From an uncultured Dehalococcoidia bacterium (GTDB lineage Bacteria > Chloroflexota > Dehalococcoidia > GIF9 > UBA5629): a DNA stretch of 64,000 nucleotides. Each line of letters opens with the position of its first letter. Position 1 is the first letter of the stretch. A program made the position numbers and the translations under genes. The notes below the pieces were generated by a model. The model searched no databases. It had not been told where the DNA came from and was given only the letters and a program-made list of their open reading frames with translations. The DNA lies in contig CALJTV010000036.1 in assembly GCA_937975645.1 (NCBI GenBank), positions 39,622-103,621 on the forward strand. Direction: 5' to 3'. Positions 5,893-31,311 of this stretch are shown piece by piece.

Positions 5893-6431
5893 TCCACTAC
5901 ATCCTCGCAGTTCCCCAGCAATTTCTTCACCGCCTCGCCGCTTTCCCAGACCTCCCTCAGCGGCGTCTCCCAGCCGACCTCGAGTTCCCTGAGAATACGC
6001 CGTTCCTCCGGCCGAGCGCTTTCTAGTTCCAGCGTCTGCAAGTATGGCTTGTCAGCAGGGCTGCCCACCGAGACCGTCCCAGTCGCTACCGTGTGCCCGT
6101 CTCTGGACTCAAGCCTTGTCTCAACCTGAACATCCCTGACATCCTTCGGTGGCACTTGCATGACCACTCTTACCTCCTCGCCATGTAACAGCGCATAGGT
6201 AAAAAACAAGCTGACCGTCCCCCGTTCAAACCATCTCTGCCCGAACAGTTTTGCCACCACCGGCGCATAGAGGTCGAAATGTATGATGCCTGCTACCACG
6301 CCACCCCTCATCCCCACCTTCTTGCCCACAGCTTCGTCATGGATCGAACCGGCTATGCCGGCGTGTGGATTGATGGCTCTGCGCCACTCCCCATAAACAT
6401 AGTCCTCTCTGGCCACAATATCGTCTGCCAC
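5829..6431 (-). CDS. Hypothetical protein (possibly hotdog-fold / MaoC-like)
   Basis: 200-aa ORF with coding-like composition. Only weak resemblance to dehydratase hotdog folds. Confidence 0.5.
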   Translation of the reverse strand: MADDIVAREDYVYGEWRRAINPHAGIAGSIHDEAVGKKVGMRGGVVAGIIHFDLYAPVVAKLFGQRWFERGTVSLFFTYALLHGEEVRVVMQVPPKDVRDVQVETRLESRDGHTVATGTVSVGSPADKPYLQTLELESARPEERRILRELEVGWETPLREVWESGEAVKKLLGNCEDVVEWYSASPLGVYPSCHSVVLPT

Positions 6432-26176: not shown

Positions 26177-27433
26177 ATGCACACCAAAAACATAGCCGTT
26201 CCCCGCCAGATCTGGCATGGGGAGAGTGAGCGTTACCTGGACTTTCCCGAGCCCTGGGAAATTTTCCTATGTCTGATGCAGGGACATAACATCCCCAGGG
26301 TCTCAGCGGACGACATCAGGTCTGCCCTAAAAACGCCAACTGGCAGTGCCCCCTTAACAGAACTGGCTAAAGGTAAGAACGAAATAGCCATAATATTCGA
26401 TGATATCTCCCGTCCCACCAGGGTCGCCGAAATTGTGCCGCACATCCTTGATGAACTCCACGCTGCTGGCATTCCGGACAGGGCGGTCAGGTTCATCTGC
26501 GCTACCGGCTGCCACGGCGCCCACACCTATCAGGACTTCCAGAAAAAGCTCGGCGCTGAGGTAATGGACAACTTCCCCGTCTACAACCACAACGTCTATG
26601 AAAACTGCACCTATGTGGGGGAGACGTCCCAGGGAACAAAGCTATCGGTCAACTCCGAGGTCATTGGCTGTGACTTGAAGATCGCCATCGGCTCGGTCGT
26701 TCCCCATCCCCAGACCGGATTCGGCGGGGGTGGCAAGATCGTCCTCCCAGGCATCGCCTCGATAGACTCCATCGAGGCTTTCCACCGCCTTGAATTCAAA
26801 GCGAGAGACGAGGGTAAATGGGGCATAGTCGGTCCGGGGAACTATGTTGACAACCCCATGGTCAAAGATTTCACCGAAGCTGCCAGGCTTGCCGGGCTAG
26901 ATTTCAAAATCGATACCCTAGTAAATGGCAAAGGTGAACCATGTGCCATCTTTGCCGGCGCCCCCGAGACAGTATACTACCAGGCAGTGAGCCTTGCCGC
27001 GAGTCACTACGCCACCAAGAGCATCCCCGATGCCGACATCGTTGTAGTCAACACCTATGCCAAGGGCAACGAAGCAATCGTTGGTCTGCTCATCGGCATA
27101 CCGATGCTGATGGCTAAGGGTGGTAACCTGGTGCTCATTATGGATTGTCCCACGGGCCAGGTGGTACACTACCTCCTTGGTAGCTTCGGCACCAGAACGA
27201 GGGGGCGCCTCTTCAATGCCGTGAGCTATAAGCTCCCCTGGCTTAAGAGAGTGATCGTCCTTTGCCCGCAGTTCGAAAAGTCCACCAAAGACTGGCTTGC
27301 CATCCCTGATGCCGTCTGGGTGAAGACCTGGGAGGAGGTTGTAGAAATACTGCGTGGCGACTTTCCTGGCAAAGCGAAAGTGGCTATCGTTCCCGATGGC
27401 ACTATACAGTACCTGGCTCCTCAGCAGACTTGA
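26177..27433 (+). CDS. LarA-like (lactate racemase N-terminal domain / DUF2088) protein
   Basis: 418 aa. 'IIFDDISRPT', 'ATGCHGAHT' and 'VVPHPQTGFGGGGKIVLPG' resemble the LarA nickel-pincer-cofactor binding region. Confidence 0.7.
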   Translation: MHTKNIAVPRQIWHGESERYLDFPEPWEIFLCLMQGHNIPRVSADDIRSALKTPTGSAPLTELAKGKNEIAIIFDDISRPTRVAEIVPHILDELHAAGIPDRAVRFICATGCHGAHTYQDFQKKLGAEVMDNFPVYNHNVYENCTYVGETSQGTKLSVNSEVIGCDLKIAIGSVVPHPQTGFGGGGKIVLPGIASIDSIEAFHRLEFKARDEGKWGIVGPGNYVDNPMVKDFTEAARLAGLDFKIDTLVNGKGEPCAIFAGAPETVYYQAVSLAASHYATKSIPDADIVVVNTYAKGNEAIVGLLIGIPMLMAKGGNLVLIMDCPTGQVVHYLLGSFGTRTRGRLFNAVSYKLPWLKRVIVLCPQFEKSTKDWLAIPDAVWVKTWEEVVEILRGDFPGKAKVAIVPDGTIQYLAPQQT

Positions 27434-28044
27434 TATCCGCGAGGCAGAAAGTGACATTAGCAGCTGACAGGATAGAACAGTTCAAATCGGAAGCCAGCCG
27501 GGCAGGCGCTAAAGTACAGGAGTTCGCCTCTTGGTCTGAAGCTATTGACTTCGTCATCGCTCTTGCCCAGCAGCATTCCGCCACCAGTGTGGTGATAGCC
27601 AATTCATCGCTCGCAGGACTCATTATGTTGGCACACCGGCTGATGAAAGAAGACTTGGAAGTGACCCGCGCCGAGCGCTGCAAATCGGAAAGCGAACAGC
27701 AGCAGCTTAGAGAGGCGTGCGTCCGGGCTGACATCGGCATCTCAGAAGCCACCACCGCCATTGCCGAGACTGGCACAGTGGTAATCGCCAGCAATGACGG
27801 CAGCTCACGTCTCATCGCAGTGCTACCCCGCCTTCACATCACGTTGGTTGAATGCAGAAACATCGTCACAGTTATGGAAGAGGCTATACTCAAAATAAAA
27901 TCGCTCGGCGGCACGCCGAACAGTCCTTTCCCCACTTACGTGACCTATATCACAGGAAGGAACACCACCGCCGACATCCCTGGTGCTCTGCTCGCTCGCG
28001 CCCAGGGTCCTGCCGAAGAGCATATTTTGCTGGTTCATTCTTAG
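27430..28044 (+). CDS. lutC: LUD-domain protein (LutC-like)
   Basis: 204 aa. '...GISEATTAIAETGTVVI...' is a LUD-type motif. Its TTG start overlaps the LarA-like TGA (TTGA). Confidence 0.65.
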   Translation: MISARQKVTLAADRIEQFKSEASRAGAKVQEFASWSEAIDFVIALAQQHSATSVVIANSSLAGLIMLAHRLMKEDLEVTRAERCKSESEQQQLREACVRADIGISEATTAIAETGTVVIASNDGSSRLIAVLPRLHITLVECRNIVTVMEEAILKIKSLGGTPNSPFPTYVTYITGRNTTADIPGALLARAQGPAEEHILLVHS

Positions 28045-28059
28045 ACCGGGGATAGAAAA

Positions 28060-30219
28060 ATGTCACGAAATATCTCCCAGCAGGTTACCAGGGCGCTCAG
28101 CGACCAGAACCTGCAGACGGCGCTCTCCAGGCTTGTCTCCCTCATCAAAATGGGCAGACAGATAGCTTTTGCCGGCGTGGACTTCGATGGCTTGAGCCGC
28201 GAGGTCCGCAGGGTGAAAGAGAGGGCGATAGATAGCCTCCCGATGTTGGCAGATGAGTTCAAGAGGCAGGCGACCGCGTCCGGTGCCATTGTATATGAGG
28301 CAAAGGACGCCGGGGAGGCAAATGCCTATGTGCTCAACCTGGCACGACGAAAAGGGATAAAACGCATCGTTAAATCAAAGTCTATGCTCACCGAAGAGAT
28401 CGGTCTCCGGGAGCACCTGGAAAGACAGGCCATCGAGGTCACCGAGACCGACATTGGAGAGTGGATTGTGCAACTTGCCGCAGAAAGACCAGCCCACCTC
28501 GTCGGTCCGGCAATACACAAGACCATCGAACAGGTAGCTGAACTTTTTTCTAAAGCCACAGGACAGAAGTTGGACCCCGAGCCACAGCTCCTGCTCGACG
28601 TCGCACGCAATACACTGCGACAGCACTATATTGATGCCCAGCTGGGTATCTCCGGCGCCAACATGGCAATCGCCGAGACCGGTACCCTAGCTATAGTCAC
28701 CAACGAGGGCAACGGCTGCATGGTGACCACACTACCACCAGTACATGTAGCCGTGGTGGGCTACGAGAAGATAGTCGCCACTTGGGAAGACACCGTTGCC
28801 ATACTTCGTCTCCTCAGCCGCTGCACCACCGGCATGAAGATGCCAGTTTACGTTTCCTATATCACCGGACCCAGCCGCATTATCGCCCCGCCGGGCACAC
28901 CCACCGCCGGTGCCACAGGTCCTGCCGAGCTCCATATTGTCCTTGTAGATAACGGTCGCTGGCGGATGTGGCAGTCCCCAGATTTCAGAGAAGCCCTCTA
29001 CTGTATCAAATGCGGTGCCTGCCTCAATGTCTGCCCCGTCTTCGCCTCCGTTGCCGGCCAGACCTATGGCTATATCTATCAGGGTGGCATCGGTGCCATA
29101 CTGACCGCCTTTCATCACGGTTTGGACAAGGCGCGCGGCCCCACCAGCCTCTGCCTCGGCTGCATGGCCTGCAAAGAGGCATGCCCCGCCCGCATTGACA
29201 TACCCCAGCTCGTGCTCCGGCTTAAAGCTATGATCGCCGACAAGAAGGGACTGCCCCTTCTTGACCGCTTTATTTACGGCACCTTCCTCAAACATCCCCA
29301 GCGTCTGGACAGCGCCGCAAAGGCAATATATTACCTCGAAAAGCGCTTCGCCGAGCCCGATTCTATGGTGCGTCACCTGCCGCGCCCCTTGAACAAACTG
29401 ACTGACACCATCTCATTACCAACCGTATCTTCGAGACCACTACGTCAACGGCTGTCACGCCTTTCCCGCCCTAGCAACACCACCCAACCCAAAGTAGCCC
29501 TCTTTGCCGGCTGCATCGGCAACTACATCTACCCAGAGACCTGTGAGCAAGCGGTGATAACACTGCGGAAGTGCGGCGCCGACGTCTATTTTCCCATCGA
29601 CCAGGGCTGCTGCGGTGCCCCGGCGTACTTCTCTGGCGAAACCGCCGCCAGCCTCGCCCTTGCGGAGACCAACATCACTGCACTGGAAGAGTTTAGCCCT
29701 GACTATATCGTCACCCTCTGCCCCGGCTGCGCTGTAATGCTCAAACAAAAATACCTTTCCCTCACCAGCGAAAATCCCTCCCTTAATCATCGGGCTCAGG
29801 TGGTAGCCGACAAGGTGCGCGACTATTCCCAGCTCATGCTCCAGCTTACAACCGGCACCACACCGGCAATGCCCGCAGGACAAAAGGTCACCTACCACGA
29901 CCCCTGCCACCTGAAACGGGGACTGGGCATAGCCAACGAGCCCAGAGAACTCCTGAAGCGCCTGGGGTACGAAATTGTGGAAATGGCTGACTGCGATGCC
30001 TGCTGTGGCTTTGGCGGCAGGGTGGTGCTCGACTATCCACAGCTATCAGCTTCGGTGCTCAAGCGAAAGCTGGACGCCATTGAAGCCACCGGCACCACCG
30101 TGGTCACAAGCTGCCTCCCCTGTGTCCTACAACTGCGCGGCGGCTTGGACAAGCGCCACAGCCCCATCAAAGCCCTCCATATCGCCGACCTTGTGGCAGG
30201 GTACAGCCCACCCAGCTAA
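28060..30219 (+). CDS. LutB-like (LUD + 2x[4Fe-4S]) fused to LutA-like CCG-domain Fe-S oxidoreductase
   Basis: CIKCGACLNVCP and CLGCMACKEACP are followed by two CCG motifs (CCGAPAYFSG, CCGFGG). The 719-aa length equals LutB plus LutA. Confidence 0.75.
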   Translation: MSRNISQQVTRALSDQNLQTALSRLVSLIKMGRQIAFAGVDFDGLSREVRRVKERAIDSLPMLADEFKRQATASGAIVYEAKDAGEANAYVLNLARRKGIKRIVKSKSMLTEEIGLREHLERQAIEVTETDIGEWIVQLAAERPAHLVGPAIHKTIEQVAELFSKATGQKLDPEPQLLLDVARNTLRQHYIDAQLGISGANMAIAETGTLAIVTNEGNGCMVTTLPPVHVAVVGYEKIVATWEDTVAILRLLSRCTTGMKMPVYVSYITGPSRIIAPPGTPTAGATGPAELHIVLVDNGRWRMWQSPDFREALYCIKCGACLNVCPVFASVAGQTYGYIYQGGIGAILTAFHHGLDKARGPTSLCLGCMACKEACPARIDIPQLVLRLKAMIADKKGLPLLDRFIYGTFLKHPQRLDSAAKAIYYLEKRFAEPDSMVRHLPRPLNKLTDTISLPTVSSRPLRQRLSRLSRPSNTTQPKVALFAGCIGNYIYPETCEQAVITLRKCGADVYFPIDQGCCGAPAYFSGETAASLALAETNITALEEFSPDYIVTLCPGCAVMLKQKYLSLTSENPSLNHRAQVVADKVRDYSQLMLQLTTGTTPAMPAGQKVTYHDPCHLKRGLGIANEPRELLKRLGYEIVEMADCDACCGFGGRVVLDYPQLSASVLKRKLDAIEATGTTVVTSCLPCVLQLRGGLDKRHSPIKALHIADLVAGYSPPS

Positions 30220-30244
30220 CCAAATCGGTAATCATCTACGACCG

Positions 30245-30273
30245 TTGACAAGCTGTGTTGTGGGTGATAGAGT
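30245..30273 (+). promoter_or_regulatory. Putative sigma70 promoter TTGACA-17-TAGAGT
   Basis: TTGACA lies at 30245-30250 and TAGAGT at 30268-30273. An inverted TGTCAA follows the -10 box. Confidence 0.5.
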
Positions 30274-30300
30274 GTCAACAACAACTGCTGGGGGTGTGAC

Positions 30301-30624
30301 GTGAAACAGCTTTCGCCAGCTCTGCTACATGTGATTATCTGGGTGCCGTGGGCTATCCTGATGATAATTGGCTGGACTGTATCCCCCTTTCCCAACGGGG
30401 CTTTCGGCGCTGTCTCGGGCTGGTTCTCCGCGGGGCTGCTCAGCCTTGGCATCCTTTCAGCCGGGCTTTTCTCTGCCGGGGTCTATTCGGCAGGGCTATT
30501 CTCCGTCGGCATTTTTTCAGCCGGTATGTTCTCAGTAGGCATCTTTTCATTCGGCACCTACTCCATCGGCATCTGGGCATCAGGGCAATACCCTATAGGT
30601 ATCTTCACTGGCAAGCTGAAGTAG
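30301..30624 (+). CDS. Small membrane protein composed of hydrophobic pentapeptide repeats
   Basis: 107 aa with a GTG start. One N-terminal TM-like segment is followed by 12 x [F/L/Y/W]-S-x-G-hydrophobic repeats. Confidence 0.55.
   Translation: MKQLSPALLHVIIWVPWAILMIIGWTVSPFPNGAFGAVSGWFSAGLLSLGILSAGLFSAGVYSAGLFSVGIFSAGMFSVGIFSFGTYSIGIWASGQYPIGIFTGKLK
30424..30603 (+). repeat. 12 tandem 15-nt (pentapeptide) coding repeats
   Basis: FSAGL LSLGI LSAGL FSAGV YSAGL FSVGI FSAGM FSVGI FSFGT YSIGI WASGQ YPIGI, read directly from the sequence. Confidence 0.85.
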
Positions 30625-30744
30625 CCGTGGCAAGACCACAACAATAGGCACGGCATCCGTGCATTGCGGGAACACAAAGGGCTAATCCACTTGCGAAGCT
30701 GTTATTTGTTTTAAGATCCCGCTAGTGGCATACTAAATGCCGCT

Positions 30745-31311
30745 GTGTCTGAAATCGGCATACTTTCGCTTTTGCTCATTGCCTTAGGGTTATCTCCCGA
30801 CTGCTTTGCCGTCGCTCTTAGTGGCAGCACCACCATCAAGTCAACATCCCGAATTCCCATGTTCCGCATGGCGTTGGCTTTCGGTCTTTTTCAGGCAGGG
30901 ATGCCAGTGCTTGGCTGGCTCGCCGGACAGACAGTGGTGGATATGGTGGCTGCCTATGATCACTGGGTGGCTTTTGCACTCCTGGCACTCATCGGCGGCA
31001 GGATGGTCTGGGAATCTTTCCGGGGCGAAGCCGAAAGAAAGCACACCGACATCACCAAGGGTGCCATGCTGCTCGGGCTTGCCATCGCCACCAGCATCGA
31101 CGCCCTGGCGATGGGACTGGTGTTCGCCTTCATTAGGGTGAACCTGCTCCTCGCCTGTCTAATCATCGGCATCATCGCCTTCGCTATGACTATAGCCGGC
31201 TATATAGTAGGGAGAAAAGCTGGCACCTATCTTGGAAAGTATGCCGAACTCGGCGGTGGTGTTATCCTCATAGCTATCGGACTTCGAGTCCTGCTCAGCC
31301 ACCTCCTTTAG
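30745..31311 (+). CDS. mntP: Manganese efflux pump MntP family
   Basis: 188 aa. '...LGLSPDCFAVALSGS...' and the repeated 'SIDALAMG' half are typical of MntP. Confidence 0.8.
   Translation: MSEIGILSLLLIALGLSPDCFAVALSGSTTIKSTSRIPMFRMALAFGLFQAGMPVLGWLAGQTVVDMVAAYDHWVAFALLALIGGRMVWESFRGEAERKHTDITKGAMLLGLAIATSIDALAMGLVFAFIRVNLLLACLIIGIIAFAMTIAGYIVGRKAGTYLGKYAELGGGVILIAIGLRVLLSHLL

Follow-up and report, generated by a model that had tools for sequence, protein, structure and literature searches.

The stretch of DNA considered here, called the window below, comprises 64,000 nucleotides (nt) from an uncultured Dehalococcoidia bacterium (contig CALJTV010000036.1, positions 39,622 to 103,621) and carries a gene for a hydrophobic mini-protein of 107 amino acids (aa) built largely of tandem pentapeptides. 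The gene lies where the initial annotation had placed it, between lactate-utilisation genes on the upstream side (encoding Lar_N, LUD and LUD-Fer4-CCG proteins) and mntP on the downstream side (MntP, 165.5 bits). The mini-protein belongs to an undescribed family that is shared by bacteria and archaea, and we tentatively propose that its members cross the membrane once as an alpha-helix and once as a beta-solenoid with ten residues per coil. The features of the locus, with the evidence for each in brackets, are the following.

30245..30273, + strand: predicted sigma-70-type promoter, TTGACA, a 17-nt spacer with a TG extension, TAGAGT (consensus scan)
30290..30296, + strand: Shine-Dalgarno-like GGGGGTG, 4 nt before the GTG start (read from the sequence)
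30301..30624, + strand: coding sequence of the mini-protein, 107 aa plus stop, GTG start (listing of open reading frames, ORFs)
30316..30381, + strand: predicted N-terminal hydrophobic alpha-helix, residues 6-27 (modelled as helical by both AlphaFold2 runs)
30382..30417, + strand: connecting loop with conserved P-x-P-N, residues 28-39, SPFPNGAFGAVS (family consensus alignment)
30418..30603, + strand: array of 12 hydrophobic pentapeptides, G-[IVL]-[FY]-[SA]-[AIV], residues 40-101 (periodicity, register, AlphaFold2, covariation, hhalign)
30604..30621, + strand: basic C-terminal tail FTGKLK (Lys or Arg, K/R, after the array across the family)
30745..31311, + strand: mntP, manganese efflux pump, the downstream neighbour (Pfam Mntp, 165.5 bits)

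The protein consists of MKQLSPALLHVIIWVPWAILMIIGWTVSPFPNGAFGAVSGW, then twelve pentapeptides, then FTGKLK, and the ORF and repeats that had been listed initially were reproduced exactly by translation: residues 42-101 read FSAGL LSLGI LSAGL FSAGV YSAGL FSVGI FSAGM FSVGI FSFGT YSIGI WASGQ YPIGI. A single period-5 register holds 13 glycines over residues 40-100, whereas 20,000 shuffles of the protein averaged 2.7 and never exceeded 8. Fourier power for Gly, Ser and aromatic residues was found at period 5 only, and across the family Tyr or Trp flanks the array at both ends (residues 41 and 87/92). All members of the family share a common plan, namely an N-terminus that usually carries K/R, a hydrophobic helix, a loop of ~12 residues, the array and a basic tail; the P-x-P-N of the loop is a feature of the window's clade. 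The N-terminal helix has a Kyte-Doolittle value of ~2.0, with L20 and G24 at least 90% conserved, and its modelled segment (residues 6-27) would act as a membrane anchor or, possibly, as an uncleaved signal sequence.

In the family alignment the repeat logo reads G (98%), then I, V or L, then F (67%) or Y (14%), then S (57%) or A (30%), then A, I or V. Residues 36-100 align without gaps in 77 bacterial and archaeal sequences, and across these 11 repeats are constant in number and register. Members have about 11-13 repeats each, the in-register Gly count has its mode at 12-13, and the window protein carries one or two degenerate extra repeats at its C-terminal end beyond the conserved 11. Conservation in the outer half of the array alternates with period 10: columns 41, 44, 51, 54, 61 and 64 are conserved, with Ala at 44/54/64, and columns 46, 49, 56 and 59 are variable, N or D being tolerated at 46 and 56 in many relatives. 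The polar D/N position had been reported as missing, which holds for the window protein and fails for many relatives, where N or D occupies position 1 of repeats 2 and 4.

Comparison of the window gene with ten Dehalococcoidia orthologues gave a ratio of nonsynonymous to synonymous substitution rates (dN/dS) of 0.08-0.15 in the annotated frame, at dS of 0.7-3, and of 0.7-5.7 in the other two frames of 30301-30624. The ORF is thus a real conserved gene under frame-specific purifying selection, and the same ratio together with the N-terminal hydrophobic helix upholds the earlier call of a small membrane protein. The promoter that had been proposed at 30245-30273 was found again by the scan, with 10 of 12 consensus matches (one site, 0.5 expected), and its -35 TTGAC is identical in six orthologous Dehalococcoidia loci, the rest of the intergenic DNA being ~66% identical. 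A G-rich or GGAG block (GGGGG/GGAG) occupies the place of the Shine-Dalgarno-like sequence in all six orthologues, and the start-codon column that the orthologues have in common holds ATG, GTG, TTG or, once, ATT. The ATT is found in the closest orthologue (L007, 5001-5003; 89% identity), which appears either to use a rare ATT start or to start at Met9, with a shorter cytoplasmic N-terminus. A perfect 7-bp inverted repeat, GTTGACA...TGTCAAC (30244-30250 and 30273-30279), encloses the promoter, with one arm at the -35 and the other reaching just beyond the -10; one orthologue (L009) has it in part and the other four lack it, which makes a conserved operator improbable. Tandem Repeats Finder saw no 15-nt array in the DNA of the gene, which rules out a recent repeat expansion at the DNA level, and the 15-nt units share just 52-62% nucleotide identity pairwise. 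The repeat is visible in the protein and not in the DNA, and it is protein-level selection that therefore maintains it.

The protein search yielded 43 homologues, 88-147 aa long, all unnamed or 'hypothetical' except three called SugE by the Joint Genome Institute (JGI); the sole RefSeq name retrieved, that of a haloarchaeal relative, was 'hypothetical protein'. A scan of one genome per species confirmed 184 loci. An exhaustive profile search of 1.84 billion representatives yielded 962 clusters at 50% identity with E<=1e-3, 215 of them with E<=1e-10; nearly all of the 962 are 96-170 aa long with a full-length match. The closest relatives (81-89% identity) are in Dehalococcoidia metagenome-assembled genomes, and other bacterial carriers are Desulfomonilaceae, Anaerolineae, cyanobacteria, Bacteroidales/Marinilabiliales, Chitinispirillum and Rokubacteria. 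Among archaea the family is carried by many cultured Halobacteria (Salinibaculum, Natrialba, Halorubrum, Halorientalis and others) and by Methanocella, Methanobacterium, Methanoperedens, ANME-1 and Bathyarchaeia, so that it reaches Chloroflexota, Desulfobacterota, Bacteroidota and cyanobacteria as well as Halobacteria, methanogens and Bathyarchaeia. A phage holin, or a phage origin, was considered and rejected, as IMG/VR holds just 4 loci among 2.9 million contigs and no lysis genes occur among the neighbours.

A few relatives depart from the common plan. P0187 (377 aa) has two complete helix-plus-array modules in tandem; together with P0182 and P0096 it is a more divergent version, from organisms that are probably high-GC. 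Arrays are longer in some relatives, with up to ~19 in-register Gly in L029 and L076. Domain fusions were also considered and rejected: the few long matches are unrelated low-complexity proteins (P0116, P0183) or read-through into a downstream secreted protein (P0126, P0156). The read-through is seen in a few Bacteroidia (L082, 4941-6119; P0126; P0156), where the mini-protein ORF continues into the next gene, which encodes a secreted protein with its own signal peptide. These run-on ORFs are probably lost stop codons or assembly errors and not true fusions; the C-terminus of P0156 looks like a sorting domain of the type IX secretion system.

The initial annotation did not recognise the repeat type as a described family, and the searches agree. 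None of the 77 members was matched by any NCBIfam model, and the sole Pfam match of the window protein above threshold was to GLTT (PF01744; 22.1 bits, cutoff 21), which also matched 64 of the 77 members at E<0.01. This marginal match reflects a low-complexity pattern and is uninformative on mechanism; the GLTT repeat of Caenorhabditis elegans resembles the mini-protein in its Gly-containing five-residue period and differs in being a Pfam family without known structure or function. Pentapeptide_2 (PF01469) scored below threshold with the window protein (18.5 bits, gathering threshold 26.4) and gave sub-threshold matches to 36 of the 77 members at E<0.01, the best at 3e-5. No PDB chain was matched at E<=10 in a profile search, and searches of the available literature collection found nothing on 'GLTT repeat', hydrophobic pentapeptide membrane proteins or transmembrane beta-solenoids.

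One further protein from the profile search, P0176 (273 aa), is soluble and contains ~25 S-T-G-D-[F/Y] pentapeptides. It scores above the PF01469 threshold with 46.7 bits, and Pfam gives nothing significant for its C-terminal half. The family profile was aligned to P0176 by hhalign with 91% probability (E = 1e-6, both sides being low-complexity) in the register G=G, S=S, F=F/Y, [IVL]=D/N/E and [AIV]=T. Judged by this register, P0176 looks like a water-soluble counterpart of the hydrophobic repeat; similarity of low complexity is weak evidence that the two share common descent.

The distribution of charges was examined in 253 members. K/R averages 1.62 per sequence before the first helix (81% of sequences with at least one), 0.21 in the loop, whose net charge is -0.57, and 3.37 after the array, where 97% of the members carry it. 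By the positive-inside rule this pattern therefore points to an N-terminus inside, a loop outside, a C-terminus inside and an array that crosses the membrane an odd number of times, and it is on this basis that we infer the membrane location and topology of the mini-protein; the distribution implies an extracytoplasmic loop and a cytoplasmic C-terminus. The median length of the charge-free span is 56 residues, which would be over-long for one helix (~84 Å) and too short for three, and which as 5.6 coils at 4.8 Å would measure ~27 Å, in keeping with a bilayer core. The belts of Tyr or Trp at residues 41 and 87/92 also speak for a membrane crossing.

Given an alignment of 150 sequences, AlphaFold2 returned a helix at residues 6-27 followed by a continuous strand/bridge pattern over 32-105, with a predicted local distance difference test score (pLDDT) of 91.9 and a predicted template modelling score (pTM) of 0.79. 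All five models of this run scored 87-92, and residues 41-100 reached pLDDT 93-98. Foldseek with this confident model found nothing significant in PDB or BFVD (best PDB TM-score 0.24), and its weak matches were other beta-solenoids, with no classical pentapeptide-repeat protein among them.

Covariation was analysed in 253 non-identical family sequences (effective number 169) by mutual information corrected for the average product and by mean-field direct coupling analysis (DCA). Both measures peak at sequence separation 10. The DCA mean was 0.82 at separation 3, 0.36 at 4, 0.44 at 5, 0.24 at 7 and 0.79 at 10, falling to -0.11 at 15 and 0.05 at 20; separation 10 differed from 15, 20 and 7 with Mann-Whitney p of 5e-7, 1.5e-5 and 1e-4, respectively. 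For pentapeptide positions 1 and 4 the coupling is confined to separation 10, and the S/A position couples most at separation 5. The i+10 coupling is not explained by gene conversion, since synonymous-codon identity among codons for the same residue is flat over offsets 5-25 (0.36-0.385, control 0.367). The spectrum of column entropy has a power of 13.0 at period 2.5 and of 0.6 at period 3.6. Together, the couplings and the entropy speak against an alpha-helix as well as against a 20-residue coil and favour two pentapeptides per turn, and a ten-residue coil in the window protein is what the covariation and the all-beta model jointly suggest. Positions 1 and 4 would form stacked surface ladders, since the sites that switch from polar to apolar covary at i+10 only.

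The best reading of these results, which we put forward tentatively, is one helix plus one membrane-spanning beta-solenoid of ten-residue coils. The chain would start in the cytoplasm, cross the membrane first as the Leu-rich alpha-helix of residues 6-27 and, after a short outside loop, return through it as a beta-solenoid of 11-13 G-phi-[F/Y]-[S/A]-phi pentapeptides, two per ten-residue turn, with the basic tail ending in the cytoplasm. Gly and Ser, the latter replacing Asn, would make the tight turns, and positions 1 and 4, which are polar in the soluble relative, are here Ile, Val, Leu or Ala and would render the surface of the rod lipid-soluble. About 5.5-6.5 turns at 4.8 Å would extend over 26-31 Å, the thickness of the bilayer core, and we propose that the repeat number is held constant because the length of the rod must match that core. 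The mini-protein would then be a hydrophobic membrane version of the predicted Pentapeptide_2 solenoid. Of the greasy beta-solenoid or helix bundle that had been expected initially, the solenoid is what deep-alignment AlphaFold2 returned, and the helix bundle becomes the somewhat unlikely alternative weighed below.

Several points weigh against this architecture. With an alignment of 44 sequences AlphaFold2 predicted a helix at 6-26 and a single 64-residue helix at 40-103 (pLDDT 73, pTM 0.34); we regard that model as unreliable, a 64-residue helix being implausible, and keep it as support for a helical alternative. For the all-beta model, both the coil length and the outward-facing residues are inferred. 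The array is of moderate hydrophobicity only (Kyte-Doolittle 1.3-1.65). To our knowledge no transmembrane beta-solenoid of L-amino acids has been solved, the literature searches gave none, and there is no known route by which Sec/YidC would insert such a segment. AlphaFold2 is also known for confident but unrealistic beta-solenoids on repeat sequences (PMC11795689), which is the reason why covariation was examined separately; covariation and AlphaFold2 share one alignment and hence are not independent. The predicted packing and topology are without covariation support, DCA between the N-terminal helix and the repeats being at noise level with no trend in the top pairs (Spearman 0.04). The recurrent gene pairings described further below are lineage-restricted, and most loci, including ~20 haloarchaeal ones, are without a recurrent neighbour.

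The alternative that survives best, and which we consider somewhat unlikely, is a conventional alpha-helical small membrane protein. The repeats would fold as a hairpin of helices or as three short transmembrane helices, which would bring the total to three or four, and Gly, Ser or Ala at every fifth position would provide small-residue packing surfaces for self-association. Translocon-inserted bacterial inner-membrane proteins known to us so far are all helical, the 44-sequence model places its helix 40-103 with pLDDT 82-90 over residues 60-90, twelve repeats make 60 residues or three segments of 20, and both termini inside would also fit four helices. The deeper alignment nevertheless turned the prediction all-beta at much higher confidence, conservation lacks a 3.6-residue periodicity, and a coupling peak at 10, with separation 3 above 4 and 7 weak, is unlike the helical 3-4-7 pattern. 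Three passes would leave ~18 residues for each, and residues 57-90 offer no polar, charged or Pro-containing turn in the 253 sequences: columns 57-77 and 79-90 hold no polar residue in any lineage, and therefore no candidate loop for three helices is available, while column 78 is polar in 32% (with N there in one repeat of some Bacteroidia members). The repeats are moreover poor in Leu compared with the protein's own first helix (6.5% against 22% over the same sequences) and rich in F, I, V, S and G, a composition weighted towards beta-branched and aromatic residues. The JGI name SugE on three homologues would add a four-helix protein of equal size to the helical side, but the SugE/SMR identity was rejected, as the window protein has no Pfam SMR match even at E<=10 and no NCBIfam match was found. 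The membrane-embedded Glu of the SMR proteins is likewise lacking, because the acidic residues within 41-94 (D+E, 0.40 per sequence) are limited to the outer-end columns 46 and 56. The alpha-helical glycine-zipper class was rejected too, since the Gly spacing is strictly 5 and not 4 and no 3.6-residue conservation period is present.

Quite improbable, in our view, is an extracytoplasmic, self-assembling hydrophobic solenoid in which the N-terminal helix is a signal or anchor and the arrays, lying outside the membrane, stack end-to-end or side-by-side into fibres or sheets, much as functional amyloids, chaplins or hydrophobins do. The evidence for a beta-solenoid serves this alternative equally, the moderate hydrophobicity and the 31% Gly plus Ser would suit an interfacial or assembled state, and open beta-solenoid ends favour end-to-end stacking. 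The basic tail (97% of members) and basic N-terminus, however, fit a cytoplasmic C-terminus; the constant repeat number and gap-free alignment would be explained by a membrane ruler and not by a fibre subunit; and no recurrent secretion, nucleator or assembly genes were found nearby.

A classical pentapeptide-repeat protein of the PF00805 type, the frame of reference of the initial annotation, is largely refuted. Classical A(D/N)LxX beta-helices (PF00805; MfpA, Qnr, Rfr) are right-handed quadrilaterals with four repeats, or 20 residues, per coil. The mini-protein is like them in having at least eight contiguous five-residue repeats with a central F followed by S, and in being, as predicted, of the beta-solenoid type; when the repeat is written G(i-2)-phi(i-1)-F(i)-S(i+1)-phi(i+2), its F and S agree with the consensus centre [L,F][S,T,R], and N or D stands at i-1 in some relatives. 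Of the full consensus [S,T,A,V][D,N][L,F][S,T,R][G] (PMC8145042) it fits the F-S centre only, with Gly in place of Ala, Ser, Thr or Val two residues before the central F, no D/N and a probable coil of ten residues instead of twenty. PF00805, PF13599 and PF13576 matched neither the window protein at E<=10 nor any of the 77 members at E<=0.01, the sequence profile search of PDB was empty at E<=10, and Foldseek with the confident model retrieved none of the many solved members. Direct coupling is ~0 at separation 20 as against 0.79 at 10, and three 20-residue coils would measure ~14 Å, too short for the bilayer crossing that the charges demand. A spurious ORF or low-complexity artefact without a product, which a short, repetitive ORF with a GTG start might bring to mind, is refuted by conservation, namely by the in-frame dN/dS of 0.08-0.15 at dS up to 3, by hundreds of full-length homologues in two domains of life (184 loci and 962 clusters, where the initial annotation had associated a spurious ORF with a lack of homologues in relatives) and by a conserved promoter, ribosome-binding site and start codon.

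Returning to the membrane-spanning solenoid, the better comparison is the ten-residue GxxNx coil of PF01469, here with an apolar surface. MPTR arrays are much longer than that of the mini-protein and variable in length. The GxxNx repeats of PPE proteins were predicted by AlphaFold2 to form the 'shortest possible coil', GXXNXGXXNX, of ten residues, which is unsolved experimentally (Akdel et al. 2022, PMC9663297), and models of PF01469 agree across four prediction methods (Pratt et al., PMC11795689). The mini-protein shares with the PE/PPE-MPTR repeats of PF01469 the five-residue period, the fixed-register Gly and, three residues after it, a small polar residue (N in those repeats, S here), as well as two pentapeptides per turn, backed here by covariation at separation 10, period-10 conservation and the all-beta model; in both cases the ten-residue-coil fold is absent from PDB. 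The N position is occupied by S (57%) or A (30%), with N in one repeat of some members. The mini-protein differs in that it falls below the gathering threshold, has no PE/PPE or other Pfam domain and is not mycobacterial. Its array has ~12 repeats in constant number with every surface position apolar, stands between a transmembrane helix and a basic tail, and is predicted to lie within the membrane, whereas the PF01469 proteins are secreted or soluble.

A second comparison is gramicidin A, the beta-helix already known to span membranes, a non-ribosomal peptide of 15 alternating D- and L-residues with 6.3 residues per turn, which forms a ~26 Å head-to-head dimer with an open cation pore. As predicted, the mini-protein would resemble it as a single chain in a beta-type helix with a fully hydrophobic exterior and a length matched to the bilayer; it differs in being ribosomal and all-L, with ten residues per turn, and its core would probably be too narrow for a pore.

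Textbook accounts give membrane proteins two architectures, alpha-helical bundles and beta-barrels, and a ten-residue-coil beta-solenoid spanning the bilayer, if true, would be a third. That the mini-protein is the first ribosomal all-L polypeptide to cross a membrane as a beta-solenoid, with a repeat number that acts as a ruler of bilayer thickness, is possible, although we hold this wider claim as doubtful. If true, it would also provide the first natural context in which to test the 'shortest possible' coil, so far an AlphaFold2 prediction for mycobacterial PPE proteins, and would raise the question of how the Sec/YidC machinery inserts a non-helical segment; the spread from Dehalococcoidia to haloarchaea and methanogens would mean that the family is ancient or was widely transferred between lineages. 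The proteins are tiny, present in cultured haloarchaea and subject to sharp predictions, which makes the idea directly testable. Even if alpha-helical, they constitute an unannotated family of ~1000 clusters at 50% identity in two domains of life, with recurrent links to Mn/Fe transport and LytTR regulators. One and the same sequence flips in AlphaFold2 from helix to confident all-beta solenoid as the alignment grows from 44 to 150 sequences; this switch, which depended on alignment depth alone, is a methodological warning, and database models of such proteins from shallow alignments may be wrong in secondary-structure class.

In Bathyarchaeia and Methanocella the genes for DtxR-FeoA, FeoB and the mini-protein follow one another on one strand with gaps of 85-94 bp, and in a Methanoperedens-like genome the order is mini-protein, FTR1 permease, DtxR-FeoA, FeoB. 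There are four such archaeal iron-uptake loci (L066, 2111-5225; L075, 2112-5279; L084, 2110-5258; L061, 4887-8907). The mntP gene lies directly 3' of the mini-protein gene on the same strand in seven loci, those of the window and of six more Dehalococcoidia, and this adjacency is kept in L012, where the remaining synteny is lost. Taken together, mntP in the window's clade and the archaeal iron clusters are a recurring link to divalent-metal transport.

A third pairing is found in Bacteroidia, where a LytTR-domain gene (~285 aa) stands directly upstream on the same strand in 11 of 14 loci (L005, 4999-5844 with 6001-6306; L031, L058, L062, L065, L067, L078, L079, L082, L083 and L085). These LytTR proteins have diverged to a mutual identity of 35-42% and no other neighbour occurs in more than two of the loci, so that the two genes are therefore a genuine conserved pair. 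The LytTR domain is at residues 182-280 and is preceded by a long N-terminal region, which from its hydrophobic sequence looks membrane-embedded. In LytTR regulatory systems of the HdrM/BrsM type a small membrane protein controls the regulator, and the adjoining of a mini-protein gene and a LytTR-domain gene in Bacteroidia is alike; it differs in the long N-terminal region of the LytTR protein and in being a pairing of Bacteroidia only, not present in the window, and the mini-protein has no sequence relation to either HdrM or BrsM. A universal gene partner was sought and rejected, since the immediate and second neighbours of ~80 loci share no family beyond LytTR, MntP and DtxR-FeoA/FeoB.

With low confidence, function being the weakest step of the proposal, we suggest a role as an accessory or regulatory membrane subunit. 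The rod might be a rigid, lipid-embedded subunit of this kind and use its conserved Ala-lined face to dock with itself or with other membrane proteins. The neighbourhoods offer MntP, DtxR-FeoA/FeoB/FTR1 and the putatively membrane-bound LytTR regulator as candidate partners, although it is improbable for any specific one of them.

Upstream of the mini-protein gene (26177-30219) are three genes identified by synteny with L002, for a Lar_N protein (LarA-like, 418 aa), a LUD-domain protein (204 aa) and a 719-aa fusion of LUD, 4Fe-4S and CCG domains (LutB/LutA-like). The five closest loci all retain this Lar_N/LUD/LUD-Fer4-CCG cluster, and more distant relatives show no linkage of it to the mini-protein. 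An Rfam scan of 29800-31200 gave no match, including none to a yybP-ykoY Mn riboswitch before mntP, and leader-peptide logic ahead of mntP is left without support. The 120-nt gap before mntP (30625-30744), where no Rfam family was found at E<=1, lacks a T-run on the + strand next to a GC-rich hairpin, GCACGG-CAT-CCGTGC, which occupies 30648-30662.

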